Virus record (IMG/VR): IMGVR_UViG_3300005512_000016
Location: 52,077 to 72,076 of that record
Length of the DNA stretch: 20,000 bases
Source of the DNA: an uncultured virus (IMG/VR IMGVR_UViG_3300005512_000016)
Taxonomy: Duplodnaviria; Heunggongvirae; Uroviricota; Caudoviricetes
Direction: 5' to 3' (one strand)
Below the pieces are notes generated by a model. The model worked only from the letters and a program-made list of their open reading frames with translations. It did no database searches and was not told where the DNA came from. Below are positions 554 through 17,184 of this stretch, one piece after another. A program made the position numbers and the translations under genes. Within the stretch, counting starts at the first letter, position 1; each line of letters opens with the position of its first letter.

Positions 554-2136
554 TAATCAAATGTTTCCTGTAATTTAAAACTAACAGTATAAAAGTTATC
601 TCTCAAGTTTGAAGAGGCACCTAATACTTGAGTAACATTCAGAGGGCCATCAAAACGTACGGTAGCAGTTCCAGATTCATTTATGTGTCCTAAATCAAAA
701 GTAAATGACTCGAACTCTCCACTTCTAGCAGTATAAAAGTCATCAATTGCTCTTTTACCTATACCGTGTAAATTTGTGTACTGAAGATCGTATTGTCTTT
801 TTGACCTTCTTGATTTCAGTCTTCTTTTTTCATATCCTGCTTGGCTTTGAAAGATAGTAGTATCAAAGGCTCTAGTAGAAGAAAAGCCTACGTCTGGTCT
901 TCTATCCGCCATTGAAGTAAATCTATCATCTTTTTCAACAGTGCCTTGATATACTCTGATATCTAAAGTGTCTTGATTATCAACTGCACCTAAAGCTCCT
1001 CCTCCTAGTTTGGTAGGAGCAGAGGTCATTGCTTCCGTGCCTAAGCCACTATATTTAGATGACCTTGAAAATCTTACAGCATCAACCTTGCCATCAAAAA
1101 ATTCTCCTGTATTGAATCTACCTATATTAACATTTCCACTAACCGTGTTACCAAATACTTTTTGCCCTACCGCCACTCTCGCGTTATTAACATAAAGACT
1201 AGCGGTCTCATCATCTCTTGAAACACTTAATGCAACATGATAAAAAGAACCTGTGTTAATAGTGCCACCATATAATTCATGTATAACACCTTCTATAGCA
1301 GATACATATCCAATTGTATTATTAGAACCAACTGTCCTAACAACTATGTAGTTGTTTGTGGCTTGATAGCGAGAAAATATAGTTCCATTTGCGCTTAGAG
1401 AGTCTGGATTAACAAAAGCTTCAAACGTGAAATCGTCACCATTTAAATCAAATATAGCTTTATCACCATAATCTAAGAAATGAGAACTTCCGTTTAAGTC
1501 TACAGACTTAGAACCAAAAGCTGCTGTGCTTGAGTATGTTTTAGTAGTAGAATTTAGATCTGTTTGCGCAATATCAGACTCATCTGTAGCATTTTCACTC
1601 TCAAAGTTAAGTAGCAGTTTTGTGGCATCATCTGCAATATCTATTCCAGAAGTACCTAAAGTTACACTTGGAAATGTAAATGCTGATGATTGCTGTAAAA
1701 CACCTGATAAAAACACTAAGAGAGAATTTGCATCGCTTACGTTAGACCCGACAGGTAATGCAAAACTCTCTTGATCTGCATTTACTAAGTAGGTGTTACC
1801 GTCAACTATTGTAGCTGATGTATTACTATAAGTGACTGCACCAGTAACTTCTGTTTTTCTACTTATCTGAAAGCGTTGTGGGAGACTAATAGTTTTTAGT
1901 TGTAGAGTAGTCGCATTAGGAGCTGTGACGAAACTTACAGTGGCACCTGCGTTTGTGACTGCATAAGTAGTAGTATCTTGTACGGCACCGTCAATTGAAG
2001 CTATAACTTCGCTCTCACGTGTTACACTTGAAGGTAAATTAAAATCTGTTGTAGAGCCTGTGCTACTAAAAGTAGCCGTTGCTAAAACAGCAAACTCTGA
2101 AGTATTAGCTGTGGCATCATTTGGATACGTTGCCAT
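553..2136 (-). CDS. Distal tail protein (Dit): C-terminal lambda gpM/DUF2460-like domain, N-terminal beta-rich domains and an inserted LamG/ConA-like domain
   Basis: Lies directly after the tape measure gene. The C-terminal ~120 aa (FDTTIFQSQAGYEKRR...YDLQY...IDDFYTARSGEFESFTF) are gpM-like. aa ~170-376 carry LamG motifs (KLLLNFE, FGSKS, DFTFEAFV, FYHVALS, LYVNN, FDGKVDAVRFS). Confidence 0.75.
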   Translation of the reverse strand: MATYPNDATANTSEFAVLATATFSSTGSTTDFNLPSSVTRESEVIASIDGAVQDTTTYAVTNAGATVSFVTAPNATTLQLKTISLPQRFQISRKTEVTGAVTYSNTSATIVDGNTYLVNADQESFALPVGSNVSDANSLLVFLSGVLQQSSAFTFPSVTLGTSGIDIADDATKLLLNFESENATDESDIAQTDLNSTTKTYSSTAAFGSKSVDLNGSSHFLDYGDKAIFDLNGDDFTFEAFVNPDSLSANGTIFSRYQATNNYIVVRTVGSNNTIGYVSAIEGVIHELYGGTINTGSFYHVALSVSRDDETASLYVNNARVAVGQKVFGNTVSGNVNIGRFNTGEFFDGKVDAVRFSRSSKYSGLGTEAMTSAPTKLGGGALGAVDNQDTLDIRVYQGTVEKDDRFTSMADRRPDVGFSSTRAFDTTIFQSQAGYEKRRLKSRRSKRQYDLQYTNLHGIGKRAIDDFYTARSGEFESFTFDLGHINESGTATVRFDGPLNVTQVLGASSNLRDNFYTVSFKLQETFD

Positions 2137-5100
2137 TATGCGCCTCCTCTCATAGATTTACGGATTGGGCCATTATTTCTTAAGTCTCTGGTCACAATAT
2201 CTATAACAATAGCATCAACATCCATACGTGGTGTAGCAGTTGTTGCCTCTTGTGGAGTGCCTTCATTTTTGACTTGAACCTTAATATTCGGCATACCTCC
2301 AGCATTCATAGCTTGTAAGTTGCTGTTTCCAATATTACGAGCAGCACTACGTTTCAGTACAAACTCACCAGGCTCTAGGAGTGCGGGAACTCTATCACGT
2401 CCTCCTGCATAACCGCCAACTGCCATTTTTCTGATTCCTGGTACTATACCTCCAGAAGCAGCTCCTATTACCCCAGCAGGTAAATCTGTGGGAATACTGC
2501 CCTTTAGTATTTCTCCACTACCACCACCAAAGGCATTGCTTAACATTGAAAATATACCACCGCCTCCGCCAGAACCGGAAATGCTTTTAAGTATATCACT
2601 TACAAAACTACCTATACTATTAAAGGAGCTTCTGCCTTTTTCAACCAACTCATCTAAGAAACTACTAAATTTAGAGCCAAGTGTTTCTGTCTTTTTATTA
2701 GCTCCATCAAGTGAGGATTGCGCATCATTTGCAAATGAGTTAACAATTCCTTTACCACCTTTTTCAACAACAGGCACATTTCCAGACTCTAATTTTAGAT
2801 CTTCAATTCCTCCTGACATATCTACACCAAGTAAATTCCCAATTTCACTAGTTAAAAAATTGGATACGGGTTTAGCAATTGTCTCTTGAAAAAACGCTTG
2901 TTGAACTTTCTTCACTGTTTCACCAAGAAAATCGGTTAAACCCTCTTTAAAGTTTTTCGCGTTTAGTGTGCCGTTAATTAGTGCATCATTTAACTCTTTC
3001 AAACCTGCAGCAAATTGTCCTCTTAACACAGTACCCACTTCTCTAATTCCATTACTAAAAGTATCATTTGCTTTTTTAGTTATGTCTGCTAAATTGCTGA
3101 CTTTATTTGTAGAGCCTACTAAGGAATTGTTTAGATTAGTTAATCCTGTAGATAAATCTATTCCAGATATCTTGAGTTTATTCTGTAAATCTTTTAATTT
3201 TTCACTGGCTGCAGCGAGTTCTGATATGAGTTTTGCATCACTTCGATTTTCGGCTAGTTTTTTATTAGCATTCGCAACATCAGTTATAGCTTTTCTAATA
3301 GTTGCAAAATCTTTTGCATCTAATTCATCTTTTAATTTTTTTAATTGATTTGAGACTTGAATAGCAACTTTTGATTTTTCAATATCGAGAAGAACTTTTC
3401 TAAACTCTTCAACGGTACCAAAATTACTACTGCTAAAACTAACGGCACCACGGGGCCCAACTGTTCCACCAAATCTTTCTACAGCACCTCTTGCAACTGT
3501 GCCTTGGGCACCACCTGCTTGAATTGCTTTAATAAGTTCTTGAGTGAAAGAACGTCTAGCTAAACTTTCATCCGATTCTCCAGGCAAGCGTCTAGATTCG
3601 TTTGCAAGTATTTTTCTTTCAACTATATCATTAGCTAATACTTGTGCTATACCGTCGATATGAGTTTTAAAGTTTTCTAATTCTTGAATTAAAAGTTTAT
3701 TTCTCTCCTCTAGGATACTAAGATCTTTTAAAGCTGCTTTTTCATCTGCGTTAATTTTATCAAGCTGAAGTTTTTTCTCAGCTTGAATACGTTTTTCAAT
3801 TAAACCAGTAAACTCTCCTGTGCTTATAAGTTCTTGTTGTTGAGCTATTTGTGCCTCTAAGATCTTTTGCTCTGCTTTTTGGTTTTCTATTAAGGCTTTT
3901 TTCTGTTCTTTAATTGATTCTTCTAATCTTTTTAATGATTCTCTTTCAAGTTTTAGTGTTAAATCTCTTTTATCTCCTTCACTTAAAAAAGGATTCATTT
4001 TAATTAATTCTTCTGTTAATTTACGTTCACTTTCTCTAACTAAGTCAACACTCTTCAATCTCGCTACTCTTAGGTTCTCATTAGCTTTAGCTAAATCATC
4101 AGTTCTTTTAATCTGATTTGTCAATTCTTTAGTTTGTTGATCTAAGGAAGCAATTGCATTTTGAGCTTGAGTAATTTTTATTTGTTGCTGGGCAATCTGT
4201 AAACGTTTCTGTTCCTTGTCTAATATTTTTCCAAGAGTTATATCAAGATCTCTTGCCGCTTCAAAACTTTTTACAAATGTTCCTATTAACGCTTTTTCTG
4301 CGTCACGTGCCAACATGGCTAACTGCTTTTGAATAGGAGTTAAGTCTTTCGCTCCTGCTCTTTGCCGCTCTAAGGCTCTTGAGCCTAGTTCAAAGTTTTT
4401 TTGTAGTTGTGCAGTTTTAGATCTCTCAATATCACGTTGACTTGTAGCAACTTTTAAACTGTCTAAATTAAGTTCATTATCTAATATAAAAAACTTATTA
4501 AGGTTATCTGCAGCTTTAATTTGCGCTGAAAACTCATTTCTTAGTTTTTTTCGTGTATTTAAAATAGCTACTTGTTGTTGAACTTGAAAATTTAATATAT
4601 CAAGTTCTTTTTGAAGATTATCAGCAGTTTTTTTATCTCTCTCATCTTCACTTTGTTTAAGATTGGCTATCTTAGTTAAAACAGCTCCACGTCTTTTATC
4701 AATTTGTTCAAGCGTAGCAGCCCCTCCCTCAAGAGTTTTTTGTAATTTAGCTGCAACTTGTAAAGATTGAACTATATTAACTTGTACAGCATTTCGAGCC
4801 TCAAATTTTCTTAACATTTCTCCTTCCATTCGTGACGTATCAACGAATAAAATTCTGTTTTTAGATAATGGGCCAGTCAAATCAGCAGCTTCTTTGACTT
4901 TTACTAAGCCTTGTCTTGATATTTCAATCTGTTTTATTACCTTTTGAAAACTCTGACCAGTTGCATCAGCGATAGATCTAACTGCTGCTGCGCCGAAATC
5001 TTGATTTGATTGCTGACTTCTTCCTCCTAAATTTGGGTTATCAGCTCTTATTTGTCTTTGCTCTCTTGCTTCCTTCGTTATATCAAGCAAGATACCAGCT

Positions 5101-6584
5101 CTTCTAAGTAAATCATCAATAAATCTAGATATTGGTTCTAAAAAACCAAAAGCATCAAGTATTGCGCTACCGACAGCTGTGATTATGGATGCAAATGTTA
5201 TAAAAGTAGTAATTTTTCCTAAAAGTCCAGCAACGAACCTACCTGCAAAAGCAAGTCCAACAGCAAATCCCTTGACACCAGCAGTAGCAAGTCTTAGGGC
5301 TTTGTTTGTAGAATTTATCCTAGTGTTAGTTATTGCTACTACTCTATTAAAAGATTTCTGTCTAGCTTCGAGTCTTGTTAATTCAATTTCCTGTGCTTTA
5401 GTGCGTTTTTGTAAAGCATTAAGTTGATCAATTTTTATCTGATTAATGCGTACTTCTTGAAGAGATAATTGGTTTAGTCGTTTAACCTCTCCAAAACTTA
5501 TTTCTTGAGCTCTGGCTTTTTTAATTAAAGTATTAAATTCTTCTTTATTAGCTATACTAGCTCTAGTAGATGCTAGACTTAACTTTTGAGTCTCTGTAGT
5601 CATTTGAGCCGCAGCTCTTCGTGTTCCTTGTAATCGTCTTCCTATTTTTTCAGTTAGAGTATCCCCAAGTGAATTAGCTGTAACTGTAAAATCTTCAGCA
5701 CTCTTTCCAAGCTCCCTAATAGCTGATCCAAATACTGTTTTAGCTAAAATACCAAAAGTAGCGATGGCCGTTACAGGTGCTCCAAGAGCTTTTACAAGAG
5801 GTTGAATTACATTTGCTATTAATACTCCAGCTTCTCTTGCAATATCACTTAGAGTTGCTACCAATTTTTCTAAACTTGAGGCTGCAGTCTCTACAGTGCT
5901 ATCTACATCTCCAAATTTATCTAAACCCTCAGATATAGCCTCATTAGCAAAAGCTTGTCGTTTTTCAAATGCTGTCAAAGAGCTTGCAACTTTACCGATT
6001 GATGCAGCATATTTTTCTGCTGCAGGCTCAATTCTAGTAAAAATTCCTAATTCGTCTAATAGTTCAGGTTCTAATTTTGCTACACCACGTAATAATCTTT
6101 GCACTGAGTCAGTTAAATCTCTTCCAAGAGCTCTAGCCGCTTTTACACCGACTGTTGCTAAACCCTCAATTTGATCAATATTAAAACCAGAAGATAAAGC
6201 GATATTAGCTAATTCAGCTGATTGAACTAGTGACAATTGACCATTAGTAATTTCTTTAAGTCGCGCTAAAACTTTAGGACCTTGTTCACCGATAGAAGCT
6301 GCTAGGGCATTTACTCCTGCAATAGTTTGTTCGGATCTTGCTGCTGCATTTAGGGCACTAAAAGCTTGTTGTAAAGCAAATATAGTAGCAGCTGCACCAG
6401 CATAAGCAGCCACTAATCCCCCTAAGCCTTGTGCTTGTGAAGAGAAAGAACGACCTGCTGAAGCAGAGCTTTGACCTAATCTAGTTTGAGCTTTACCTAT
6501 ACGTTGGGTATCACCTTCAACTTTTTTAGCGCCTCTAGTTACAAATTCAGTTTGGACAGTGTTCTTAATTTTACTACCAGCCAC
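2136..6584 (-). CDS. Tail tape measure protein (T5 pb2-like N-terminus)
   Basis: 1482 aa, Ala/Leu/Lys/Gln-rich helical and coiled-coil composition with hydrophobic segments (GFAVGLAFAGRFVAGLLG...). Has the C-terminal motif DRVPALLEPGEFVL, follows the chaperone pair, and starts at GTG preceded by AGGA. Confidence 0.93.
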   Translation of the reverse strand: MAGSKIKNTVQTEFVTRGAKKVEGDTQRIGKAQTRLGQSSASAGRSFSSQAQGLGGLVAAYAGAAATIFALQQAFSALNAAARSEQTIAGVNALAASIGEQGPKVLARLKEITNGQLSLVQSAELANIALSSGFNIDQIEGLATVGVKAARALGRDLTDSVQRLLRGVAKLEPELLDELGIFTRIEPAAEKYAASIGKVASSLTAFEKRQAFANEAISEGLDKFGDVDSTVETAASSLEKLVATLSDIAREAGVLIANVIQPLVKALGAPVTAIATFGILAKTVFGSAIRELGKSAEDFTVTANSLGDTLTEKIGRRLQGTRRAAAQMTTETQKLSLASTRASIANKEEFNTLIKKARAQEISFGEVKRLNQLSLQEVRINQIKIDQLNALQKRTKAQEIELTRLEARQKSFNRVVAITNTRINSTNKALRLATAGVKGFAVGLAFAGRFVAGLLGKITTFITFASIITAVGSAILDAFGFLEPISRFIDDLLRRAGILLDITKEAREQRQIRADNPNLGGRSQQSNQDFGAAAVRSIADATGQSFQKVIKQIEISRQGLVKVKEAADLTGPLSKNRILFVDTSRMEGEMLRKFEARNAVQVNIVQSLQVAAKLQKTLEGGAATLEQIDKRRGAVLTKIANLKQSEDERDKKTADNLQKELDILNFQVQQQVAILNTRKKLRNEFSAQIKAADNLNKFFILDNELNLDSLKVATSQRDIERSKTAQLQKNFELGSRALERQRAGAKDLTPIQKQLAMLARDAEKALIGTFVKSFEAARDLDITLGKILDKEQKRLQIAQQQIKITQAQNAIASLDQQTKELTNQIKRTDDLAKANENLRVARLKSVDLVRESERKLTEELIKMNPFLSEGDKRDLTLKLERESLKRLEESIKEQKKALIENQKAEQKILEAQIAQQQELISTGEFTGLIEKRIQAEKKLQLDKINADEKAALKDLSILEERNKLLIQELENFKTHIDGIAQVLANDIVERKILANESRRLPGESDESLARRSFTQELIKAIQAGGAQGTVARGAVERFGGTVGPRGAVSFSSSNFGTVEEFRKVLLDIEKSKVAIQVSNQLKKLKDELDAKDFATIRKAITDVANANKKLAENRSDAKLISELAAASEKLKDLQNKLKISGIDLSTGLTNLNNSLVGSTNKVSNLADITKKANDTFSNGIREVGTVLRGQFAAGLKELNDALINGTLNAKNFKEGLTDFLGETVKKVQQAFFQETIAKPVSNFLTSEIGNLLGVDMSGGIEDLKLESGNVPVVEKGGKGIVNSFANDAQSSLDGANKKTETLGSKFSSFLDELVEKGRSSFNSIGSFVSDILKSISGSGGGGGIFSMLSNAFGGGSGEILKGSIPTDLPAGVIGAASGGIVPGIRKMAVGGYAGGRDRVPALLEPGEFVLKRSAARNIGNSNLQAMNAGGMPNIKVQVKNEGTPQEATTATPRMDVDAIVIDIVTRDLRNNGPIRKSMRGGA

Positions 6585-6592
6585 GGGGTTTC

Positions 6593-6925
6593 CTATCTAC
6601 TACGTGATTTAGCTTTTGACATTGCATCTCGTTCTTTTTGTTTTTGAGCATAATATTTACTAGCCTCAGCTTCAGCTGCTTTGAGTAAATGAAACACATC
6701 TTTTCTATTATCCATATCATAGATGTCCATAATGTCCATTAAACCGCTATAGTCTTTACCCATCCAGCTTCCACTCATACCTTCCCAGTTATCTGGTAAG
6801 GCATTGAATAGAATTAGTGCGCATTGAGCTTCATAAGATAAAGAATCAACCTCTAAAGGTATATCTTCCTCTCTCGGTTCCCAACCCATTTGATCGCACA
6901 TAAGCAAATATTGTTCAGTTGACAT
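6593..6925 (-). CDS. Tail assembly chaperone, gpT-like part (T5 p138-like); probably expressed mainly as a G-T frameshift fusion
   Basis: Sits between the G-like gene and the tape measure gene. Its reading frame is open upstream to the slippery site at 6964-6970. Motifs QYLLMCDQMGWEP and W.G..G.W.GKDYSGL. Confidence 0.8.
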   Translation of the reverse strand: MSTEQYLLMCDQMGWEPREEDIPLEVDSLSYEAQCALILFNALPDNWEGMSGSWMGKDYSGLMDIMDIYDMDNRKDVFHLLKAAEAEASKYYAQKQKERDAMSKAKSRSR

Positions 6926-6970
6926 ACCTCCGCTAAAAAACGCATTACGAAGGTATTCAATTAGTTTTTT
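6919..6970 (-). promoter_or_regulatory. Programmed -1 ribosomal frameshift signal (A AAA AAC plus downstream hairpin)
   Basis: mRNA reads GAA AAA AAC UAA. The -1 frame reads LIEYLRNAFFSGG-MSTEQ, in frame with the 6925 ATG. The stem AUACCUUCG/CGGAGGUAU (6956-6948 with 6932-6924) begins 7 nt after the heptamer. Confidence 0.85.
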
Positions 6971-7392
6971 TCGTTTGTCTCGGCTTTAGTTTTTGAAAAC
7001 TGCTCAAAATCATTCATAGCATCTGTTATAAATTGATCAAACAGTGTAGAATTTTTTAATAATTCTAACGCCTCTTCTGGGCTATATTCGATCTCTTCTT
7101 CACCATTAACGCCAGATATATCAGCTGGAAATAGCAGTGGTAAGTTTTTGTATCTAAGACCACTCCACCCTTTAATAGCTTTTTCTGAGTATGCTTCTAA
7201 AAACTTATCATTGTCAACTTCTTCTTCTCGTTGACGTGTGCGTTTATTAAATTTGAAAGTTAATGATCTATTTCTAATTTTCATTAACTCATCTCGATTA
7301 AGATAGACTAAATCAACCATAAATCCATCAATTTCTGGAAATTCAACTGTAGTTACAGTTTCTTTAGCCATTAAACTTTTTATTTTACTCAT
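6961..7392 (-). CDS. Tail assembly chaperone, gpG-like (T5 p139-like)
   Basis: 143 aa, acidic, with motifs VEFPEIDGF and AIKGWSGL. Lies between the major tail and tape measure genes, has SD GAGGGG at 7400-7405, and ends in a slippery site. Confidence 0.85.
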   Translation of the reverse strand: MSKIKSLMAKETVTTVEFPEIDGFMVDLVYLNRDELMKIRNRSLTFKFNKRTRQREEEVDNDKFLEAYSEKAIKGWSGLRYKNLPLLFPADISGVNGEEEIEYSPEEALELLKNSTLFDQFITDAMNDFEQFSKTKAETNEKN

Positions 7393-7398
7393 TATTTT

Positions 7399-7513
7399 TC
7401 CCCTCTATAAGTAAAAAGCGCTATCGGTATATCTGCTACTGTTGGGTGAGGGGAGTCCCATTTCGCAAACCGATAGCGCCATCTGTAAACCTTTATCCCC
7501 CCTCAAAGATAAA
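7399..7513 (-). promoter_or_regulatory. Structured intergenic RNA element (terminator/attenuator-like, with alternative anti-SD pairing)
   Basis: Perfect 11-bp inverted repeat 7418-7428/7469-7479 followed by UUUUU (7413-7417) on the mRNA. Inner stem UGGG/CCCA with loop ACUCCCCUCA. Separate upstream hairpin at 7492-7513. Confidence 0.7.
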
Positions 7514-8797
7514 TTAAGACTTTTTAGCAAATATTGTTATTTCACCGCCATCACCTCTTGTAGCTGTTGGCTCTTGTGCAACAAAATTTACTGACATACT
7601 AATTACATCCTCTGTAGCTAGTGTTGGAAATTCAAACTGAACTGCGTCCATTTGAAATGCTACATAAGGTGCTGTAGTGCCACCAATAATTAAGTTAGCA
7701 TTAGATGTCTGTGCTGAACTAGTTCTTGTATCTTGAGATATATTTCTTAAAAATCCAGCAGATTCTAAGTCATCAGATCTTAAATACATACTTGCGGAAC
7801 CTGTTACAGCTCTTGTACCTGTAAATTGACCAATAGGAGAGTTCAATGTTGAAAGCTCTTCTGGTGTTAGGTATGTAATATTATTATTATAATCAAAACT
7901 TAGAGCAGTTACTGGAAAAGTAAACTTTTCATCAGCTGCACCAGCTGTAGCTTTATGATGAAACTCAATTGTACTAAGTCTGTTTTTAATAAATGCGTTT
8001 GTAGCAACGCTTCCCGCAACGTTCATAGAACCGTATGGGTGATAGGCTTGTGCCACTGCAGATAGTGTAGCAGTTGCATTTGAGTTAGCAGTTACACTTG
8101 TTCCAGCGTTTAATATTCCACCAAACACTGAAATAGCTTTGTCTCTATCAGCACCTGTAAGTTCTTTTAAGTCTGTTCCAAAACCTGCCCATGTAGTTGT
8201 TGCAATTTCTTCAATACCTGCATCAACAGTGGCTTGATTAACAGTAGCATTACCAACTTGATATACCACATTATCAAGTTTAAAATATAAGTGATTTTCT
8301 TGAGCAGTTGAAAAGTTAGTCGCCGTGGCTGCTTTACCTACTGCAGCTGCAACAGTTGTACTTCTTAGCTTTCCACCAGTTTCCCAACCTGATCTACTAT
8401 CAGTTGTTGAAGCGGGTTTTGTAGATGTAATCATTGACTGCCACAAAAACCAATCAGCCACTGGCATAGAATTACCATTATCTGTAGTTCCAGCCACTGT
8501 ACCAGGTGATTCTGAGTCAGCTGTAACTTCAACGCCAGTTGGTCGTAAATAAGTCTGAAAGTTCCAATCTACAGGGTTAATTGCAGTATTAAATCTTTGC
8601 TGAGATCTATCTGGAGTAGTTCCAGATTCCAATGAAGTAATATCAGTTGTAGCAGCACTTGATGTTAATGCAAAACCAGCTAGTACTTCGAGTTTCCAGG
8701 TGTTACTTGGTGTCATTGCAGTAGCGGCTCCTCCGCCTGCTAAATCAATGGTTGAAAAGAACACTTCTGAATTTCTTTGTAAATTTAAAGAAGGCAT
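7514..8797 (-). CDS. Major tail tube protein, T5 pb6-like, without the C-terminal Ig-like domain
   Basis: N-terminus MPSLNLQRNSEVFFST...NTWKLEVL...TDITSLESGTTPDRSQQRFNTAINPVDWNFQTYLRP, plus NNNITYLTPEEL and FTGTRAVTGS, match T5 pb6 as recalled. Strong SD AAGGAG. Confidence 0.92.
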   Translation of the reverse strand: MPSLNLQRNSEVFFSTIDLAGGGAATAMTPSNTWKLEVLAGFALTSSAATTDITSLESGTTPDRSQQRFNTAINPVDWNFQTYLRPTGVEVTADSESPGTVAGTTDNGNSMPVADWFLWQSMITSTKPASTTDSRSGWETGGKLRSTTVAAAVGKAATATNFSTAQENHLYFKLDNVVYQVGNATVNQATVDAGIEEIATTTWAGFGTDLKELTGADRDKAISVFGGILNAGTSVTANSNATATLSAVAQAYHPYGSMNVAGSVATNAFIKNRLSTIEFHHKATAGAADEKFTFPVTALSFDYNNNITYLTPEELSTLNSPIGQFTGTRAVTGSASMYLRSDDLESAGFLRNISQDTRTSSAQTSNANLIIGGTTAPYVAFQMDAVQFEFPTLATEDVISMSVNFVAQEPTATRGDGGEITIFAKKS

Positions 8798-8808: not shown

Positions 8809-9264
8809 TTAATCCTCTAATCTGTACTCTACGGTTAGAACAATTTCTGCTAGACCTAATGGCTCTGCAAGTCCTTCATCAGTAGAAACATTGTCTATTT
8901 GTATATTCAAGATTCCCTTCTCTGGACTACCTGCTAAGTTATAGATAACGTGTTCGATATCTTGTACCAACTCATCAGCTTTTGTTTGAGAATCGTCCTC
9001 TCCGTATACGTATGCTCTTATAGTAACGTCTAACGTTGCAACCGTCAAACTTTTAGTATTAAAATCTCGGATTTCGGTACCCGCGTTAAGATAAAGTGCA
9101 GGAAAGTCATTAACTTCATCTAGAAACTTAATTTTTCTATAAACATTATTAAATATGTTTGTAGTATAGGTATATGAACTATCAAATCCAGATTGTTGAC
9201 CGTCTATCTCTTTAAGGTTGGAAACCAAAAAATCAATTATATCTGTGCGTCTTGATTGTGGCAT
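8809..9264 (-). CDS. Tail tube terminator protein, T5 p142-like
   Basis: Motifs NNVYRKIKFLDEVNDFP, GTE, LVQDIEHVI and VSTDEGLAEPLGLAEI match T5 p142 as recalled. Lies immediately upstream of the major tail gene. Confidence 0.88.
   Translation of the reverse strand: MPQSRRTDIIDFLVSNLKEIDGQQSGFDSSYTYTTNIFNNVYRKIKFLDEVNDFPALYLNAGTEIRDFNTKSLTVATLDVTIRAYVYGEDDSQTKADELVQDIEHVIYNLAGSPEKGILNIQIDNVSTDEGLAEPLGLAEIVLTVEYRLED
9020..9048 (-). promoter_or_regulatory. Candidate sigma70-type promoter inside the p142-like gene, facing the major tail gene
   Basis: TTGACG (9048-9043), 17-nt spacer, TACTAT (9025-9020); about 220 nt upstream of the major tail ATG. Confidence 0.5.
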
Positions 9265-10649
9265 TAATTACCCCTCACTATGTTAAACTTTCGTGCATAT
9301 AGACCTTGTACAACTTCTCTTATTGTATTAGTTACTAGTATATCTGGATTACGTTGACTTTCAATTAAGCTTTTATATATAGGGTCGTAAAAAAATCTAA
9401 TAACGTTAGCTTTATAACTAGGTAAAACTGCAACACTACTTCTAAATCTTCCAGTTCTCTCAGTAAGTATGGTTGGAGATAGGGGAGGTCCTCGCTCAGG
9501 TCCTTTAGGCATTATCGCTCCAAGTCTTCTTTGGACTAGAGCAGATAGTTGAGCGCCAGAAATAAACTTTTGTACAGAGTCTTTCTTAGCTTTTCTCTTC
9601 CTTACTGCTGTCATTCCAAAATTTTGTTTACTAAATCGTGGAGATTCTACAACAGTGCGAATAGTAAAAGGTGTTAACCCCCCTTTTTCAAATTCCTTAG
9701 CAAAGGCAACTATCAAGGATAAGTATTCATTTACCGCATTTGTTTTTTTAACCTCATTCGGTATTTCTTGGACTATTAAATAGTTTAATAGCCCTTGTGA
9801 AAATTTTATACCATTTGCTTTTAAATGAGCTTCATTAACTTTTTGAGTTAAGTCTCTAACACCTTTTTCCATGTCTGCAAAAAGTTCTGCAGTAGGTTTA
9901 ATTTCAATTCTATATTTATCAGCGGCACTAGATGAACTTTTTATTTTTATGGATATTTGAAAGTATCTTGAAAATATCTTTTGATCTTTAAAAACATTTG
10001 ATGAAATATTTTGAAGTGGATTTGTAATAAACTTAAATATAGGTTTATTTTGTTTTTCAATATCAGCAGTATCAACTACTAATAAGTTTGCAAACTTAAC
10101 TCTAGCATTTAAAAATAATAAGTTTCTAAAAGGAGTTAGCTCCTTACCAAATAGTGCATTGATAGCATCTTGACCAAAAAGTTGTTTTCCTCCAACAGCT
10201 GATTTAATAAGTTGACCCTCTGGCTTATTTAAACTTCTACTAATAGCTGTAATTGCAGGCTCGGCTGCTCCACCAACACCTTTAACTTTAGTTTCATAAG
10301 CACTTGGTAACGTTATCTTCTCTCCAGTATTAGATTTAAGCGCATTTATCTCTGAAAGTCTAAAACCTGCAGTAGCCTCAAATTCATCAGCATCAACAAT
10401 AGCATCAGCTATAGCTCCTCCTGATACTCCGACAGACTCAAATATTCTTCTTGCACCAGATTTTGCATCTTTAGGCATACCCAGCCCAATACCCATTTGC
10501 TCTGATATGTAATCAGATACACGACCAATTAAAGTATTTCTTAGTTGCTTAAGTTCTTGTGCTTTTTTACTACGAAGTCCAAAATTTTCATCTACTTTAC
10601 CGTTAGGAAAGGTAGTCTTTACAATACCAAGGTTAAGATTAGGAGCCAT
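9264..10649 (-). CDS. Tail completion/neck protein, T5 p143-like C-terminus with an enlarged N-terminal part
   Basis: Synteny between the head-completion and tail-terminator genes. The basic C-terminus (LTERTGRFRSSV...YDPIY...RNPDILVTNTIREV) resembles p143-family proteins. Confidence 0.7.
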   Translation of the reverse strand: MAPNLNLGIVKTTFPNGKVDENFGLRSKKAQELKQLRNTLIGRVSDYISEQMGIGLGMPKDAKSGARRIFESVGVSGGAIADAIVDADEFEATAGFRLSEINALKSNTGEKITLPSAYETKVKGVGGAAEPAITAISRSLNKPEGQLIKSAVGGKQLFGQDAINALFGKELTPFRNLLFLNARVKFANLLVVDTADIEKQNKPIFKFITNPLQNISSNVFKDQKIFSRYFQISIKIKSSSSAADKYRIEIKPTAELFADMEKGVRDLTQKVNEAHLKANGIKFSQGLLNYLIVQEIPNEVKKTNAVNEYLSLIVAFAKEFEKGGLTPFTIRTVVESPRFSKQNFGMTAVRKRKAKKDSVQKFISGAQLSALVQRRLGAIMPKGPERGPPLSPTILTERTGRFRSSVAVLPSYKANVIRFFYDPIYKSLIESQRNPDILVTNTIREVVQGLYARKFNIVRGN

Positions 10650-11986
10650 TAGATAACAATCCTATAAAGGTCCAATATACGTCTAATATGTGGGGGAAAG
10701 TTTCCTGCAAGATTAAACTTATCTCCTCGTTCTCCCTCAAAACTAAAACCTTTTTTATCTTGATCTTGTTTATGAAATAATTTAATCATATCAAGAGTAG
10801 CAACTTGAAGATCATAAGGAACTTGTCCTGATTCATATCCTCCACGATATGTTACTTTAACTCCGCTAGGATAAGGTTGAAAAGTAGGTGGCCCACTTAG
10901 TGTAAGTGATGGATAAGATCTATTAACAGTTGGATAATTACCTGTAATGCCTATGTCACCTGTATCTCTAGTAATTTCTCCACTGTCTCGTGAAAAACTG
11001 TATTGATTTATTGCAGCGCTAACATCTTTAGCTTCTGTATCTCCATTTTTACCATCAAAATGAATTAACATTCGTGTTTGTTCATCAGGTCTAAATCTTT
11101 GTGATGGGGGAGTAAAGTCTCCTGAATATCTTGCAGTATCGCTAATTCTTAATTCGTCAATATACCCTGCAAAGTCGTTACCTATAAGCACGTTTGTTGT
11201 AAAAGTATTGTTATTTACAGCAAATGTTTCACCACTGGCTCCTGTAATATTATTCCCATTATAAGTTAAAAACATTCGTTGAGAAACACTATTAAAAGAT
11301 GCAGCTACATGTGCGAACTCTCGTTGTCCAAATTGCTGTGTTTGAATAAGTGTGTTAGCACCAGTAACTGTTGTTGTGCTTCCACTAATTGTGCCATCAA
11401 TTTTTAAACCACTTGTTCCATTTGTAGAAAATTTTAAAGAATTTGTCGCGTCTGTGTTAATTGAAAACAGCTCCTGTACAGGTAAACTCGAGTCATTAAC
11501 ACGAATAAACATCTCAATGGTAAAATCACCCTCTTCAAATTTTATATCTTCAGATACTGTACCTTCTACAAAGTCTGCGGATGCCACCTCTAAACTAGAT
11601 TTTCCAAATCTTTTAACTCTTGAATTAATATGAGCGTCATTCTTAAAGGTAAGAGTTACACTATCATTATCTTGAACATTAGGCATACCATTAGTCGCGG
11701 GATCGTCAAGAGTCATATGCTCTATACCATTAAACTCTGTTACTTCGTAGACATTACTAAGAGGCAATCTATTAACAAAAACGCTTGTTTCGCCTCCGTC
11801 AAAAACTTCAACATAATCATTAGCTAAGACTTGTTGTCCGATATAGTGTTCAACAACTCCTGTGGCATAACTTATGATATTACTAAGAGTACCATCATGA
11901 GTAGTGCTATTAATACTTAAATAACTTTTTACTTGTGGCAACGTTACATACGGATAACGACCAAGCCCCTCTTCATGTCTATCCAT
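10649..11986 (-). CDS. Head completion/head-tail adaptor (T5 p144 / HK97 gp6-like) with an inserted LamG/ConA-like domain
   Basis: N-terminal YVTLPQVKSYLSI...IISYATGVVEHYIG and C-terminal GVKVTYRGGY..VPYDLQVATLDMI...FPPHIRRILDLYR are adaptor motifs. aa ~110-323 are LamG-like (RFGKSS, GDFTIEMFI, FAHVAAS, FAGYIDELRISDTARY). Confidence 0.85.
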   Translation of the reverse strand: MDRHEEGLGRYPYVTLPQVKSYLSINSTTHDGTLSNIISYATGVVEHYIGQQVLANDYVEVFDGGETSVFVNRLPLSNVYEVTEFNGIEHMTLDDPATNGMPNVQDNDSVTLTFKNDAHINSRVKRFGKSSLEVASADFVEGTVSEDIKFEEGDFTIEMFIRVNDSSLPVQELFSINTDATNSLKFSTNGTSGLKIDGTISGSTTTVTGANTLIQTQQFGQREFAHVAASFNSVSQRMFLTYNGNNITGASGETFAVNNNTFTTNVLIGNDFAGYIDELRISDTARYSGDFTPPSQRFRPDEQTRMLIHFDGKNGDTEAKDVSAAINQYSFSRDSGEITRDTGDIGITGNYPTVNRSYPSLTLSGPPTFQPYPSGVKVTYRGGYESGQVPYDLQVATLDMIKLFHKQDQDKKGFSFEGERGDKFNLAGNFPPHIRRILDLYRIVI

Positions 11987-12231: not shown

Positions 12232-12265
12232 TAAATAAAAAGGGGAGGCTATCCACCTCCCCCTT
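12232..12265 (-). terminator. Rho-independent terminator after the major capsid gene
   Basis: mRNA AAGGGGGAGG-UGGAUAG-CCUCCCC-UUUUUAUUU: GC-rich 7-8 bp stem plus U-tract, about 27 nt after the capsid stop. Confidence 0.88.
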
Positions 12266-12291: not shown

Positions 12292-13698
12292 TTAACCAGT
12301 AATGTTCATAACTGCGTAAGAATACTTAGCTGCATCTAGTGCGTTATTTGAGTTAGTTGTTAACGGTCTAAAGTCAAAACGTGTGCTCATATACATTGCT
12401 GTAACTTGCTGTCTTGGCTCGTACTCGCTCTCGATCTCCATACCACGTCTTTCAGCGATTAAGAATCCAGGCTTATACACTAGCATACCAATATGTCTGC
12501 TAGATCCACCAACTACGTCTAAGAATTCAGTGATCTGGATTGGTATACCATACACTGCACCAACAGAACCTGTTAGGTAAGTAGCGTTTGGTCCAAATTT
12601 ATCAACTGTTCTAAAGTCTGAAGTTTGAACTAAGTTATTATAACCTTCAATAGTGGTTAGATATACTAACTGGTCACCAAGTTGAAGACCATATTTACCC
12701 ATTGAACTTCTTGCACCTGCGATATCAGTTGGGTCAACTTTATCGTTAGCACCGCCAGTTGCTACTGTAAGAGAAGCATCTGCTGCTAAGTTAGTTAAAC
12801 CTTCGATAACTGAAGCATAACCTGTACCTGCAGTAATTGCGTTAGTAGGTGATGCTGTGAAGCCAGTTAATGCGCCTGTACCTCTAAGTATTGATTTATC
12901 AATAGCTCTTGCAAGACGTCTAGTAGCTGCTGCTCTTAGGAAGTCAAGCAATGGAAGAACTGTATCTTCCTCTTCATCTTTTGCAAGATGAGTAGTTGCC
13001 ATAAACTTATGAGGTGTGAAGGTAACAGCTGAGATTGTATTTTGGTTTGTAGTAGGTACGTTAGATGCATCTGCAATACCTGTTGCAAATGTGCCTGACT
13101 TAAACTGTGCTACATCTCCGTCTGTATCTTCATCAGCTACTGGTACTCTAAAATTTCTAGCATCCACTGCGATTCTTTCGAACATTGGAGCAATAATTAA
13201 TTGCTGCTCCATCTCAGTGTAGATGTTTGAAGAAAAGTTAGAAAGGAACTGATCTACAGAAGTGATCGCCTTCATTCTTGAACCGTATTTAGTATCAAAT
13301 ACGTCTCGCTTATTCATGCACTTGGCAAGTAAATAAGCATTTGCCATTTCTTTCTCTGAGAATTGAGAAGTTTTACGACTATTTTCTTGATAAGTCATTT
13401 TAGATTCAGTTAATGATTTAATCTGATCCTTAAATGTTGAGATCTGAGCCTTAAGTTCATCAACTTCCGCTGATTCCTTAGGTGTATACGCAGTCTCTCT
13501 TCTGTCTTGAGCGTCAGCCTCTTTCATCATTGCTTCACCAGTTTTCTCCACTAGCTTAGCAACTTCTGGCTCTGACACTTCTGCTTTTACAACTGGTTGC
13601 TCTTGAGCTTTAGTTGCTTCAGCTTTTTCGATCTCTTTCGCTGCACCTTTTGATGCGGACGTAAGGTCAATAGGAGTATCGATATCCTGGTTTGCCAT
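12292..13698 (-). CDS. Major capsid protein precursor (468 aa, HK97 fold with delta domain) from an internal in-frame start at Met399
   Basis: AAGGAGG (13713-13707), 8 nt, ATG (13698). Size is close to T5 pb8 (~458 aa). VFDTKYGSRMK/AITS matches the pb8 maturation-site region as recalled. HK97-fold motifs RRLARAIDKSILRG and GSVGAVYGIPI. Confidence 0.8.
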   Translation of the reverse strand: MANQDIDTPIDLTSASKGAAKEIEKAEATKAQEQPVVKAEVSEPEVAKLVEKTGEAMMKEADAQDRRETAYTPKESAEVDELKAQISTFKDQIKSLTESKMTYQENSRKTSQFSEKEMANAYLLAKCMNKRDVFDTKYGSRMKAITSVDQFLSNFSSNIYTEMEQQLIIAPMFERIAVDARNFRVPVADEDTDGDVAQFKSGTFATGIADASNVPTTNQNTISAVTFTPHKFMATTHLAKDEEEDTVLPLLDFLRAAATRRLARAIDKSILRGTGALTGFTASPTNAITAGTGYASVIEGLTNLAADASLTVATGGANDKVDPTDIAGARSSMGKYGLQLGDQLVYLTTIEGYNNLVQTSDFRTVDKFGPNATYLTGSVGAVYGIPIQITEFLDVVGGSSRHIGMLVYKPGFLIAERRGMEIESEYEPRQQVTAMYMSTRFDFRPLTTNSNNALDAAKYSYAVMNITG

Positions 13699-14892
13699 TT
13701 TGGTTTCCTCCTTGTGGGAATTTTCGTGAAGCTGAGAGGTTTCGCTCTTAATTTCTTCACCTTTTGATTTTTTAATGTTGTTAACGTCAACATCTAACGT
13801 ATTATCACAACTATTTCCGTCAGCGTCAACCTCTAAAAATTTAAAAGTTGGCGATTGGTCGGTTGCAATTTTAGTCACTTTGTAGGTTTTTCCGTTTAAT
13901 TCTACAGTTGCACCATTTTTGACTAATTCTGGTTCTTGCTCTAAAAGATTGATAAATGGAATCTCTGCATTAGGATCTCTAATCTCAAGTTCTTCTTCAT
14001 CATTTTCTTTTTCAGCTTCAGTTTCTAAATCGGTTTTTTCTTCCGAAATTACCTCTTCATTTTTATTCTCTGTAACCTCAGCACCTCTTGTTTGAGAAGC
14101 CATTTCTTCAGAAGGACTTAAAGGTCTTTCGTCAGAATCTTCTTCAGCCATCTCTACAGATGAGTCATGCACAGCAACAGCACTAACTGTCATAGAATGT
14201 TTATGACCTTTAGCTTCCATTATCTCATACCCCTCTACTTTATGAGAGTGGTTTTCCATATGAGAAGCATAAGTTGTAATTCCATTACCATTCTCATCTA
14301 CTTCTAAAGTATGATAATGGCCATCAATCATATCAGTTATGCCTGCTTTTATGTATGCTTTAGTTTGTTCTTTGTCCTCAAACTGTTCAAGAAAAGATTT
14401 TCTCTCATCATCTGAGTTAAAACTTTTGCTAATGCTAAATAATGAATCTTGATTACAAGGCACACTAACAACACTAATCTCTAATAATTCAACATCAGTT
14501 ATTGTCATTGTATCGTCTTCGCGATTATATTTACCATCTTTAACTTTAAAACCAACGCTGAAACTTTTTAAGGCTCCATCCTTGATAAGGGTCTGTACCC
14601 CGTGATTCTTCTCTGCTGCTTCACTGACGGAAGCTTCAACAAAAATACCTTTTTTATCAACTTGTATTTTGTTAACATTACCTATTGGGCAATCGTGTTT
14701 ATGTTGATAGAGAAGAACAGGATTACGTCTAAAGTTATCTACGCCTTTAGCCCATGCATCTGCAGTTATAACATCACCTGCACGGTCTTTAGCAGTAGTA
14801 TTTGCATAGCCAGCAATTTTAATTGACTTAGTCTTTTTATTAAATGACTTAGCTTCTAAAACGCTATTTAAATAAAACTTTTTATCGTTCAT
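12292..14892 (-). CDS. HK97-type prohead protease (peptidase S78) fused in frame, through a ~240-aa linker, to a T5 pb8-like major capsid protein
   Basis: Protease motifs IAGYAN..KDRAGD, NPVLLYQH64, KSFS112VGF and LLE138ISVVSVPCNQDS. No stop codon before the capsid part. SD AAGGAGG at 14902-14908. Confidence 0.92.
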   Translation of the reverse strand: MNDKKFYLNSVLEAKSFNKKTKSIKIAGYANTTAKDRAGDVITADAWAKGVDNFRRNPVLLYQHKHDCPIGNVNKIQVDKKGIFVEASVSEAAEKNHGVQTLIKDGALKSFSVGFKVKDGKYNREDDTMTITDVELLEISVVSVPCNQDSLFSISKSFNSDDERKSFLEQFEDKEQTKAYIKAGITDMIDGHYHTLEVDENGNGITTYASHMENHSHKVEGYEIMEAKGHKHSMTVSAVAVHDSSVEMAEEDSDERPLSPSEEMASQTRGAEVTENKNEEVISEEKTDLETEAEKENDEEELEIRDPNAEIPFINLLEQEPELVKNGATVELNGKTYKVTKIATDQSPTFKFLEVDADGNSCDNTLDVDVNNIKKSKGEEIKSETSQLHENSHKEETKMANQDIDTPIDLTSASKGAAKEIEKAEATKAQEQPVVKAEVSEPEVAKLVEKTGEAMMKEADAQDRRETAYTPKESAEVDELKAQISTFKDQIKSLTESKMTYQENSRKTSQFSEKEMANAYLLAKCMNKRDVFDTKYGSRMKAITSVDQFLSNFSSNIYTEMEQQLIIAPMFERIAVDARNFRVPVADEDTDGDVAQFKSGTFATGIADASNVPTTNQNTISAVTFTPHKFMATTHLAKDEEEDTVLPLLDFLRAAATRRLARAIDKSILRGTGALTGFTASPTNAITAGTGYASVIEGLTNLAADASLTVATGGANDKVDPTDIAGARSSMGKYGLQLGDQLVYLTTIEGYNNLVQTSDFRTVDKFGPNATYLTGSVGAVYGIPIQITEFLDVVGGSSRHIGMLVYKPGFLIAERRGMEIESEYEPRQQVTAMYMSTRFDFRPLTTNSNNALDAAKYSYAVMNITG
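13801..13829 (-). promoter_or_regulatory. Candidate sigma70-type promoter inside the fusion linker, facing the internal capsid start
   Basis: TTGACG (13829-13824), 17-nt spacer ending in TGn, GATAAT (13806-13801); about 100 nt upstream of the internal ATG. Confidence 0.65.
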
Positions 14893-16153
14893 CTACTGTT
14901 TCCTCCTTTGGATTATCAGACTCTTCTTCAGGAGGTCTGCCTCCTTGAGTAGCGTCAGTCGCGCTACCTGTAATATTTTGTGGTACCCTAATGCCATCTT
15001 CTCCCTCGATTCTGGGTAACCTTAAACCTTTTCTAGCTTCATTAGGTGTCATAATGCCTGTGTTTACTAATTGTGCATAGTAAGTAGACTCTGTTCTCAT
15101 CTCTGGTCTTAGAGCAGGAATGGTCATTTTATCAGGTCTTATTTCTACTCCACCGTTAAAAAAATGCATGAAAGCGCTACAAAACTGATTTAATATCGGT
15201 AATATTGTGTGCTGATAAAAAAGCTTTTGATTAGCATCTATATTAGCATTATTACCAGATTTTAAAAGCACGTAAGGAACTCCAATTGCTTTAGCAATAT
15301 CTTGTTGGATTCTTTCAACACTATTTTCAAAGTCTAGTTCATCAAATTTCACATTTGAAAACTGATCTATCTTTAATCCTCCATCTAGTATAGCTGGATT
15401 TCTCGCGTTGTCAAAAATAGTTGTGTAGGAATTTCTCCAGCTCTCTAAAAGTCGCTCTTTTACTCTTTTACTTAAAATACTGTCTGTTGTCAGTACGAAT
15501 CCTGGAACTGCGTTGTTTTTGAAAAATTGCCTCTGAAAGTTGATAAGATAAAAGTAAACCTCAAGTAAACGTTTAATAGACTTAAGCTTACTAGTTCCTC
15601 TAAATATGCTTAGCTCATTCTCATTCATTACATGTATTATTTCATAAGGTTCAAAAACTATTGATTCACTTTTTGTGGTAGTTTTATTAAAATTGTAAAA
15701 ATCTTGAGATTGCTGGTTTGAAATTAGATAATTGTACTGCTTAACAAATGCTCGTTCATCAGGAACAACTTCAACATCATTAGCTGGTAATAGATATAGA
15801 TCATTTCTATCATAATAGAAAAATACATTACCATCTAGAAAAAAGTCTAAAAAAGCTCGTCTAAATAACCTAGCTCTATCCTCAAAAGGATTAGGTCTAT
15901 AGTTAAGTAACTTATTAATTTTTTTACTAGGAGAACCTCCCTCTACTAATAATGGAATTTCGGTTAAAGCGTTAATGCACATCTCAATTGATCTATTTAC
16001 TATCTCAACTTCACGATACGCTTGTTCAAAGTCATGAGTATTTTCAGGACTTGCATATGGTTCTAAAGCAGCAATAGATGGCTGAGCAGGATTTAGTTTT
16101 TCAGATAACCATTCTCTCCACGCGGGCACTTGTTTTTGTTGATTATTTGCCAT
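14882..16153 (-). CDS. Portal protein (HK97 family, T5 pb7-like)
   Basis: Motifs EKLNPAQ, LLNYRPNPF, DFFLDGNVF, FFKNNAVPG, IAKAIGVP and LVNTGIMTPNEAR; 423 aa; synteny. Confidence 0.95.
   Translation of the reverse strand: MANNQQKQVPAWREWLSEKLNPAQPSIAALEPYASPENTHDFEQAYREVEIVNRSIEMCINALTEIPLLVEGGSPSKKINKLLNYRPNPFEDRARLFRRAFLDFFLDGNVFFYYDRNDLYLLPANDVEVVPDERAFVKQYNYLISNQQSQDFYNFNKTTTKSESIVFEPYEIIHVMNENELSIFRGTSKLKSIKRLLEVYFYLINFQRQFFKNNAVPGFVLTTDSILSKRVKERLLESWRNSYTTIFDNARNPAILDGGLKIDQFSNVKFDELDFENSVERIQQDIAKAIGVPYVLLKSGNNANIDANQKLFYQHTILPILNQFCSAFMHFFNGGVEIRPDKMTIPALRPEMRTESTYYAQLVNTGIMTPNEARKGLRLPRIEGEDGIRVPQNITGSATDATQGGRPPEEESDNPKEETVDER
15387..15414 (-). promoter_or_regulatory. Candidate sigma70-type promoter inside the portal gene, facing the protease-capsid ORF
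   Basis: TTGACA (15414-15409), 16-nt spacer, TATACT (15392-15387). Confidence 0.4.
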
Positions 16154-16539: not shown

Positions 16540-17184
16540 TTATGTCCAACCTAATTTTTTAAAGTTTTCTATAACCTGCCACCTAAGTTTAAAATGGTCA
16601 GATTGCCTATTTAAACCTACTTCATATTCTGGTAAAGCAACATAAGAACCGTCAATGGTCGGTAAATAATCTAATTGAAATCGATGCTTAATTAAGTAAC
16701 TTACTATAATATCGTCTCCTCTTTTAGGTAATCCATATTTTAATAGTTCTTTTTTTATAATATCAAGGGAACTTTGTCTTACACATATAACAGACCCTAC
16801 CAGAAAATCTACTCTCCCTCTTTCATTCCAAAATCTTTCAAGTTCAAAATAATTTCTACTTCTATTCACACTACTATAACCAAAAATACCGACAATGTGA
16901 ACACAATTATTAATTAATTTTTTAACTGTTCTTGGATTTATAAGTATATCGTCATCAAGCACAATTTTAAAGGGTTCTTTGTATTCATAACATCGTAACC
17001 AACGTTCCATACAATATCTATTTGAATCATTATTAATAACTTCAGCATTCTCATTTGAATATGTATGTCCTGCTAGATTATTAATAACAGTAATTGGGTA
17101 ATACTTATGAAGTGCTTTTACAATAAGATTAACGTTACCCCATCGTTTATAGCATAAAATTATTATTCTAACCTGTGAAGACAC
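16540..17184 (-). CDS. GT-A fold glycosyltransferase (GT64/EXTL-like or GT2-like)
   Basis: IIILCYKR N-terminal strand, VINN, DxD motif in IVLDDDILI, IVGIFG, RGDDIIVSYL, and C-terminal H...R....F...G. GTG start overlaps the end of terL. Confidence 0.78.
   Translation of the reverse strand: MSSQVRIIILCYKRWGNVNLIVKALHKYYPITVINNLAGHTYSNENAEVINNDSNRYCMERWLRCYEYKEPFKIVLDDDILINPRTVKKLINNCVHIVGIFGYSSVNRSRNYFELERFWNERGRVDFLVGSVICVRQSSLDIIKKELLKYGLPKRGDDIIVSYLIKHRFQLDYLPTIDGSYVALPEYEVGLNRQSDHFKLRWQVIENFKKLGWT

Follow-up and report, generated by a model that had tools for sequence, protein, structure and literature searches.

From a single operon, tailed phages have to produce hundreds of tube subunits but just a few molecules of chaperone and tape measure. 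To our knowledge, the control of such ratios is understood mostly for the G/GT frameshift and not for the step from tube to chaperone. The window, a stretch of 20,000 nucleotides, comes from an IMG/VR virus record of 72,076 nt (34% G+C, completeness about 64%), and the gap between its tube and chaperone genes covers 121 nt (7393–7513), read as mRNA from the minus strand. The original prediction had placed there an RNA switch and leaky terminator, in which one loop has two mutually exclusive partners, and which sets the ratio of the tube protein to the chaperone and tape-measure proteins.

All genes called in the window are on the minus strand; together they make up a siphophage late structural module:

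17168–18412, minus strand: large terminase
14882–16153, minus strand: portal, about 35% identical to the portals of Epseptimavirus phages
12292–14892, minus strand: protease-capsid fusion, an 866-aa ORF with Peptidase_S78 at residues 21–155 and an HK97-type capsid domain at residues 552–847
within the module, minus strand: head-tail proteins, from gene calls
8809–9264, minus strand: tail terminator
7514–8797, minus strand: major tail (tube) protein, 427 aa, phrog_3575 (E 8.4e-48), stop codon TAA at 7516–7514
6961–7392, minus strand: tail assembly chaperone, 143 aa, phrog_313 / phrog_3914, start codon ATG at 7392–7390
6593–6925, minus strand: second tail assembly chaperone ORF, 110 aa, a −1 frame continuation
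2136–6584, minus strand: tape measure

At about 30% identity, the tube protein is related to its counterparts, the major tail proteins, in T5-like Vibrio phages. Together with the identity of the portal, this points to a distant T5-like phage, uncultured and aquatic. A DNA similarity search of 50,697 phage records gave no match, and no prophage relatives were found among 185,579 species genomes. Protease and capsid are fused in one ORF in this phage, whereas they are separate genes in phage smaug. Laminin_G_3 (concanavalin-like lectin) domains are present in two structural proteins (553–2136 and 10649–11986, minus strand); one of these domains lies within the distal tail protein, past the tape measure, and the other is inserted in a head-tail connector or head-completion protein. 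At its 3′ end, the 143-aa chaperone ORF reads GAA AAA AAC TAA and contains the heptamer A AAA AAC (6970–6964, minus strand), which is of the classical −1 slippery type. Past it, the −1 frame stays open into the ATG of the 110-aa ORF, and the two ORFs probably represent the G / G-T chaperone pair that siphophages usually have.

The RNA of the gap can be divided, in the order of transcription, into the following parts:

7492–7513, minus strand: hairpin H1, UUUAUC (7513–7508) paired with GAUAAA (7497–7492), loop 7507–7498
7497–7505, minus strand: G-motif UGAGGGGGG, Shine-Dalgarno (SD)-like, in the H1 loop, core GAGGGG
7481–7491, minus strand: linker between H1 and P2, A/U-rich and single-stranded, as judged from sequence and fold
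7469–7480, minus strand: P2 5′ arm GGCGCUAUCGGU, pairs with 7417–7428
7465–7468, minus strand: P3 5′ arm UUGC, pairs with GCAG (7436–7433)
7443–7460, minus strand: hairpin P4, UGGG (7460–7457) paired with CCCA (7446–7443), 10-nt apical loop ACUCCCCUCA (7456–7447)
7433–7436, minus strand: P3 3′ arm GCAG, from sequence, fold and covariation
7429–7432, minus strand: AUAU bulge at the P3–P2 junction, on the 3′ side only
7417–7428, minus strand: P2 3′ arm ACCGAUAGCGCU, pairs with 7469–7480
7413–7417, minus strand: U-tract UUUUU abutting P2, candidate intrinsic termination site
7399–7405, minus strand: chaperone SD GAGGGGA, with 7 bp of complementarity to the P4 loop

Re-reading the minus strand showed that the helices and coordinates of the original prediction are correct base for base. 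H1 begins at the first base past the tube stop codon, with 7513 directly adjoining the TAA. The perfect 11-bp G+C-rich helix that had been described is P2 (GCGCUAUCGGU, 7479–7469, with ACCGAUAGCGC, 7428–7418), which contains seven G-C pairs, extends to 12 bp once G7480-U7417 is counted, and is followed by UUUUU. The P4 loop (7456–7447) carries the anti-SD-like C-motif CUCCCCUCA, which can form 9 bp, one of them G-U, with the H1 loop (7505–7497) and 7 perfect bp with the chaperone SD (7405–7399), as proposed; its CCCCTC occurs nowhere else on the mRNA strand of the window. The gene context of major tail and chaperone was equally accurate, and the list of ORFs confirms that the gap is the longest non-coding one in the window. 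The minimum free energy fold of the gap contains H1 and the P2/P3/P4 stack at −36.9 kcal/mol, with a z-score of −1.98, and 5 of 200 shuffled sequences fold equally well. Given this modest z-score, the single sequence is weak evidence for structure, and it is the comparison with relatives, all of which hold the element and which display covariation, that lifts it above chance.

Relatives were collected by IMG/VR protein searches, which confirmed 188 relatives of the tube protein and 112 of the chaperone, and 80 loci were kept from each. Two further searches, seeded by distant members, added 31 and 69 loci, and a scan with a motif pattern contributed more. Both genes could be placed in 275 loci, which reduce to 112 distinct gap sequences of 119–159 nt, and in all 112 the word GAGGG occurs with CCCTC downstream of it. 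The element is thus universal among the 275 related loci holding a tube and a chaperone gene, which answers the call for a conservation check across homologous gaps.

A covariance model built from 55 main-clade sequences found one copy in the window, at 86.2 bits, the next best hit reaching 13.1 bits (E 0.27), and no second copy in the window or the genome. The pattern scan for three motifs returned 123 loci; when the model was run on 100 of them, 33 matched with E < 0.001, and two more were listed at E near 1. Each of the nine model matches checked for context, the weakest included, lies between tube and chaperone homologues. Six loci with pattern matches on both strands were read and attributed to chance: four of them are in G+C-rich DNA (63–67%), and the other two, at 45% G+C (L177 and L184), are one sequence in opposite orientations. 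No comparable gap exists in the two cultured T5-like phages that were checked, Vibrio phage Luma and Salmonella phage smaug, in which the minor tail gene starts about 10–15 nt after the tube gene.

The nested helices are supported by compensatory changes in three analyses. RNAalifold, applied to 66 sequences, predicts H1, P2, P3 and P4, with compensatory changes in 21 of 23 pairs. In a plain MAFFT alignment of 55 sequences with a structure of 28 pairs, 95.8% of the cells are paired, compared with 88.6 ± 0.3% after shuffling and 40–54% in slid controls, and double changes occur at 19 of the 28 pairs, a number that none of 500 shuffles reaches. By helix, all 12 counted pairs of P2 and six of the eight pairs of H1 covary, while P3 is invariant at three of its four pairs and shows no double change within this main clade. 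A third alignment was fitted to the covariance model (100 distinct rows; 100 loci with 101 matches, one spurious antisense match of 16.8 bits being retained). There, double changes are seen at all 28 nested pairs, with 95.8% of the cells paired against 72.8% in shuffled data, although these counts lean towards the model structure, to which the alignment was fitted. In H1 (8/8), P2 (11/11, with 99.3% of the cells paired) and P3 (4/4), every pair is double-changed, the changes in P3 appearing once distant clades are included, and P4 covaries too.

In the same model-fitted alignment, P2 contains 53 G-U cells and only 8 non-pairs, which places the fold on the mRNA strand. These strand-specific G-U pairs speak against a DNA-level element, such as a cruciform or a protein site, and this reading was rejected. 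In other clades, an A/U-rich bulge, read directly from the sequences, occupies the same 3′ position. The element is a real, conserved and well-defined structured RNA.

The two most conserved blocks of the gap are found in hairpin loops. GAGGGG in the loop of H1 and CCCCUC in the loop of P4 are exact reverse complements of each other, and both are invariant in all 102 rows of a tree of the adjacent coding sequences. Next to this 6-bp core, a U-A pair is kept in 97 of the 102 rows. The following position outward is variable, being G-C in 59 rows, G-U in 18, A-U in 17, U-A in one and unpaired in seven, with 22 state changes on the tree; in the plain alignment it is G-C in 34 sequences, A-U in 15, G-U in five and otherwise in one. 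Across the 74 distinct haplotype pairs of the two loops, the core always anchors a contiguous helix of 7–14 bp. Native partners form 9.47 bp on average, whereas shuffled partners form 8.47 ± 0.11 bp and reach the native value in 0 of 5000 trials, haplotypes being mutually related; with Watson-Crick pairs only, the means are 8.54 and 7.68 bp. Several clades have outer matches of their own, namely GGGGGAAC with GUUCCCCC, GGGGAAA with UUUCCCC, GGGGGCAAA with UUUGCCCCC, and GGGGGU with ACCCCC. Two haplotypes match CGAGG with CCUCG, and in three others CGAGG or AGAGG stands opposite CCUCA, a mismatch at the outer position.

Few independent events lie behind this covariation. The plain alignment has two contact pairs with double changes, which is not above shuffled data (493 of 500 shuffles), and an underpowered test of independent pairs, with only six contrasts, assigned about 2.5 to changes in the same direction, 0.2 to the opposite one and 3.3 to no change (median p 0.5). 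It is mainly the invariance and exact complementarity of two displayed loops that make the loop-loop contact likely, and the kissing pairing of the original prediction is preserved in every variant. Clades whose H1 has a long stem confine the contact to the loops, which makes it a true kissing interaction. In main-clade sequences, the helix continues for about 5 nt into the 3′ arm of H1, and full H1 and the full contact helix therefore compete.

Of the leaky terminator that had been proposed, the stem and the tail behave as in a conserved hairpin of the terminator type. P2 comprises 9–17 contiguous bp in all 112 variants, and the 8 nt past it hold at least four U in 99 variants, at least five in 81 and at most three in 13; an uninterrupted run of at least four U follows P2 in 68. 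In 111 of the 112, GAGGGG is separated from P2 by 16–30 nt. A textbook intrinsic terminator is a simple hairpin with a loop of 3–8 nt. In the window, P2 encloses 40 nt (7468–7429, comprising P3, P4 and the bulge), far from so short a loop, and the hairpin of the gap is not listed by a terminator consensus scan of the window. The largest clade has a U-tract that is interrupted or displaced by one or two bases, as in GUAUUUUA.

The same scan listed 11 sites, compared with 10.6 in shuffled sequences, which is no excess. Its top match is a plain hairpin at another junction:

12239–12265, minus strand: plain hairpin AAGGGGGAGG...CCUCCCCUU with U-tract UUUUAUUU

This hairpin is located 26 nt past the protease-capsid gene and directly before a strong AAGGAG ribosome-binding site, so both abundant structural genes precede a G+C-rich hairpin with a U-tract.

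Our preferred reading, to which we give a probability of roughly 0.55, is that the gap encodes a cis-acting attenuator of the terminator type, about 120–130 nt long, in the late tail mRNA and pseudoknotted through a kissing loop. Its body would be a terminator-type hairpin formed by the G+C-rich P2 and the U-rich tract, the top of which is elaborated into P3 and P4. The P4 loop, CCCCUCA, would form the kissing helix with the H1 loop, UGAGGGG, often extending into the H1 3′ arm. RNA polymerase would stop at the U-tract with partial efficiency, and the folded 3′ end would protect the abundant tube mRNA, both of which would leave less message for the chaperone and the tape measure than for the tube. 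On transcripts that read through, the G-loop of H1 would occupy the anti-SD-like loop, so that the weak, G-rich ribosome-binding site of the chaperone stays usable. Most likely, then, the element attenuates and stabilises transcripts in such a way that the tube message exceeds the chaperone and tape-measure message, and the G-loop probably keeps the anti-SD-like loop off the chaperone ribosome-binding site. Termination, read-through and transcript stability are all features that we infer from the sequences and their predicted folds.

The chaperone SD, which had been named as the second of two mutually exclusive partners of the P4 loop, behaves differently from the H1 loop across the family. 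Its best helix with the P4 loop measures 4–10 bp (mean 6.3), with at least 6 bp in 92 of the 112 variants and at most 5 bp in the other 20. Native helices are not longer than shuffled ones (6.24 against 6.39 bp, the observed value being reached by 299 of 300 shuffles). In the plain alignment, the loop flank does not covary with the SD (79.9% of the cells paired and a score of 0.036, against 78.9% and 0.033 in shuffled data), and 35 of the 55 sequences have no pair with the SD at the loop position that tracks H1. The mean energies of the isolated duplexes are −19.1 kcal/mol for the P4 loop with H1, −13.1 for the loop with the SD and −8.2 for H1 itself, and the duplex with H1 is stronger than that with the SD in 103 of the 112 variants. 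Of the original claim, the pairing with H1 is thus retained throughout, whereas the pairing with the SD does not covary and shrinks in a minority of variants; with the duplex energies added, mutual exclusivity is a possibility at the level of sequence only.

The chaperone SD itself contains GAGG in 106 of the 112 variants, GGGG in 76, GAGGGG in 71 and AGGAG in 2. The SD of the tube gene has the canonical AGGAG (UAAGGAG) in 42 of 43 distinct upstream regions. GAGGGG is found in one of 44 tail-terminator SDs and at two of 71 crudely called ORF starts across the genome. The type of SD therefore contrasts systematically between the two genes, being canonical for the high-copy tube gene and atypical and G-rich for the low-copy chaperone gene.

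These features bear on the strongest alternative, a translational switch, in which the P4 loop acts as an anti-SD on the chaperone site, the G-loop of H1 acts as an anti-anti-SD, and ribosomes that finish translating the tube gene unfold H1, alter the loop's choice of partner and thereby gear chaperone translation to tube translation. We regard a true ribosome-driven switch as possible, a live minority reading. The 7-bp complementarity in the window, its persistence at 6 bp or more in most variants and the atypical SD are in line with it; the extra Gs of this SD pair with the loop and would add nothing to canonical anti-SD pairing. In one clade, the SD is AGGGGGAA and still forms 8 bp with UUCCCCCU. 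H1 starts 0–13 nt past the stop codon (92 of 109 variants have it at a distance of at most 9 nt, and in the remaining three of the 112 no hairpin was found at this position), which is suitable for a terminating ribosome but could simply reflect a compact genome. The frequent extension of the contact into the 3′ arm of H1 supplies the competition that a switch would use, and a third partner constrained by the ribosome would be the easiest account of the invariance of both loops. Against these points stand the missing covariation and the unexceptional length of the SD helices. Moreover, whole clades with the SD GAGAGGAAA have at most 5 bp of pairing with the loop, which is invariant regardless, and the loop:H1 duplex is not only the stronger one but also transcribed first.

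A plain attenuator leaves unexplained why two loops are invariant while every stem drifts, which counts against our preferred reading. One elaborate form of the switch, rather unlikely as a whole, is a ribosome-sensing gearbox. A ribosome at the tube stop codon would melt H1 and free the SD-mimicking strand to capture the anti-SD loop over 8–14 bp; the captured loop would in turn release the chaperone's own G-rich SD, so that, with each tube protein synthesised, chaperone and tape-measure initiation across the structured 120-nt gap would be licensed with a small, fixed probability. If true, such a gearbox would amount to long-range translational coupling of a new type, housed within a terminator.

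Another explanation, which we consider improbable, is that the fold serves RNA stability or processing instead of termination, as a compact, nuclease-resistant 3′ end of the tube mRNA, as a processed small RNA from the 3′ untranslated region whose C-rich loop would target G-rich ribosome-binding sites in trans, or as a site bound by a protein of the phage or the host. The compact knotted architecture, the invariant loop sequences and the conserved positions of bulge and linker would fit such a role, and Gram-positive bacteria are known to have small RNAs that recognise G-rich SDs through C-rich loops. In every variant of the element, however, the G-loop masks the C-loop in cis, an odd arrangement for a seed that acts in trans, and there is one copy per genome, at a constant gene junction.

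It is highly improbable that the gap holds just a plain intrinsic terminator, with loop complementarities that are by-products of SD and anti-SD words in an A+T-rich genome. Such a view would account for the G+C-rich stem with UUUUU and for the modest z-score of the single-sequence fold. It is contradicted by the covariation of H1, P3 and P4 and by the reverse-complementary loop blocks, which all 112 variants retain despite full divergence of the stems; the hairpin after the capsid gene, in addition, manages with none of these parts.

Scarcely credible, and rejected here, is a leader peptide or small ORF that starts from an ATG at the foot of P2 and mediates attenuation by the ribosome: the window does have such an ATG (7482–7480), which opens a 25-aa frame (26 codons) ending in a TAG just before the SD, and 50 of the 112 variants have an ATG near the start of P2, but it is missing in the other 62, including every one of the 12 variants that have the commonest loop pair and the clade with a GAGUGCC stem except three (for example L029, with the ATG 2 nt inside P2), while frames, lengths and peptides are unconserved. 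Given its distance from P2, the G-motif is too far upstream to be the SD of that ATG. An AUG positioned 2 nt ahead of P2 (AUGG...) recurs in several unrelated clades. An antiterminator pairing between the region of the G-motif and the 5′ arm of P2, sought by eye, was also discarded, being unconserved between clades.

Returning to the kissing-loop attenuator, the original prediction had not recognised the element as a named RNA family, and this is borne out by the scans with Rfam 15. An E-value scan of positions 7000–8000 gave four matches, all with E of at least 1.7 and none in the gap, and a scan of seven diverse relatives at the gathering thresholds gave none. In the texts reached by full-text literature searches, no description of the element was found. 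The closest resource among them lists 8495 candidate RNAs from IMG/VR intergenic regions, of which 1241 contain a predicted terminator (PMC10690425). It shares with the present element both the source of the data and the kind of evidence, namely covariation in phage intergenic regions, and the passages seen do not discuss function or a tail-gene context (PMC10690425). The element may already be present, unnamed, among the DNAVirus_N models of that collection.

The element is an abundant RNA, with 275 loci and 112 variants, that combines a terminator-type stem with an invariant contact between an SD lookalike and an anti-SD lookalike and has no Rfam entry. It offers a compact and testable model of how attenuation, RNA tertiary structure and possibly translation termination could jointly fix protein stoichiometry, and it could also be used to mark tail modules when uncultured T5-like phages are annotated.

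Three kinds of known systems can be compared with it. Rho-independent terminators and 3′ stabiliser hairpins follow major structural genes in the late operons of phages, as does T-phi of phage T7 past gene 10. The element resembles them in its G+C-rich stem and U-tract, placed past the most abundant tail gene and before low-copy genes. Unlike them, its stem encloses a conserved, branched insert of about 40–50 nt, its apical loop pairs with an upstream hairpin, and its loop sequences are invariant, whereas ordinary terminators need no tertiary contact and keep no invariant loop sequences.

Platforms of SD, anti-SD and anti-anti-SD segments are known from the thiM riboswitch and from the long-range interaction between the coat and replicase genes of MS2. 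As in these systems, there are three segments, of which the middle one is complementary to both others and one is a ribosome-binding site, and the possible trigger, a ribosome on the upstream gene, is shared with MS2. The element differs from platforms of the thiM type in that no ligand-binding aptamer is evident, and from SD platforms in general in that its anti-SD:SD pairing does not covary and is lost in some clades, its anti-anti-SD pairing being the stronger one in most variants.

Kissing complexes, finally, are known from RNA I and RNA II of ColE1 and from the L2–L3 contact of purine riboswitches. The element shares with them two hairpin loops joined by a strictly conserved, complementary core of 6–7 G/C-rich nucleotides. 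In contrast to both, its contact would link, in cis, a hairpin of the 3′ untranslated region of the tube gene to the tip of a terminator stem, through a helix that often reaches 8–14 bp and continues past the loop into the stem of H1.
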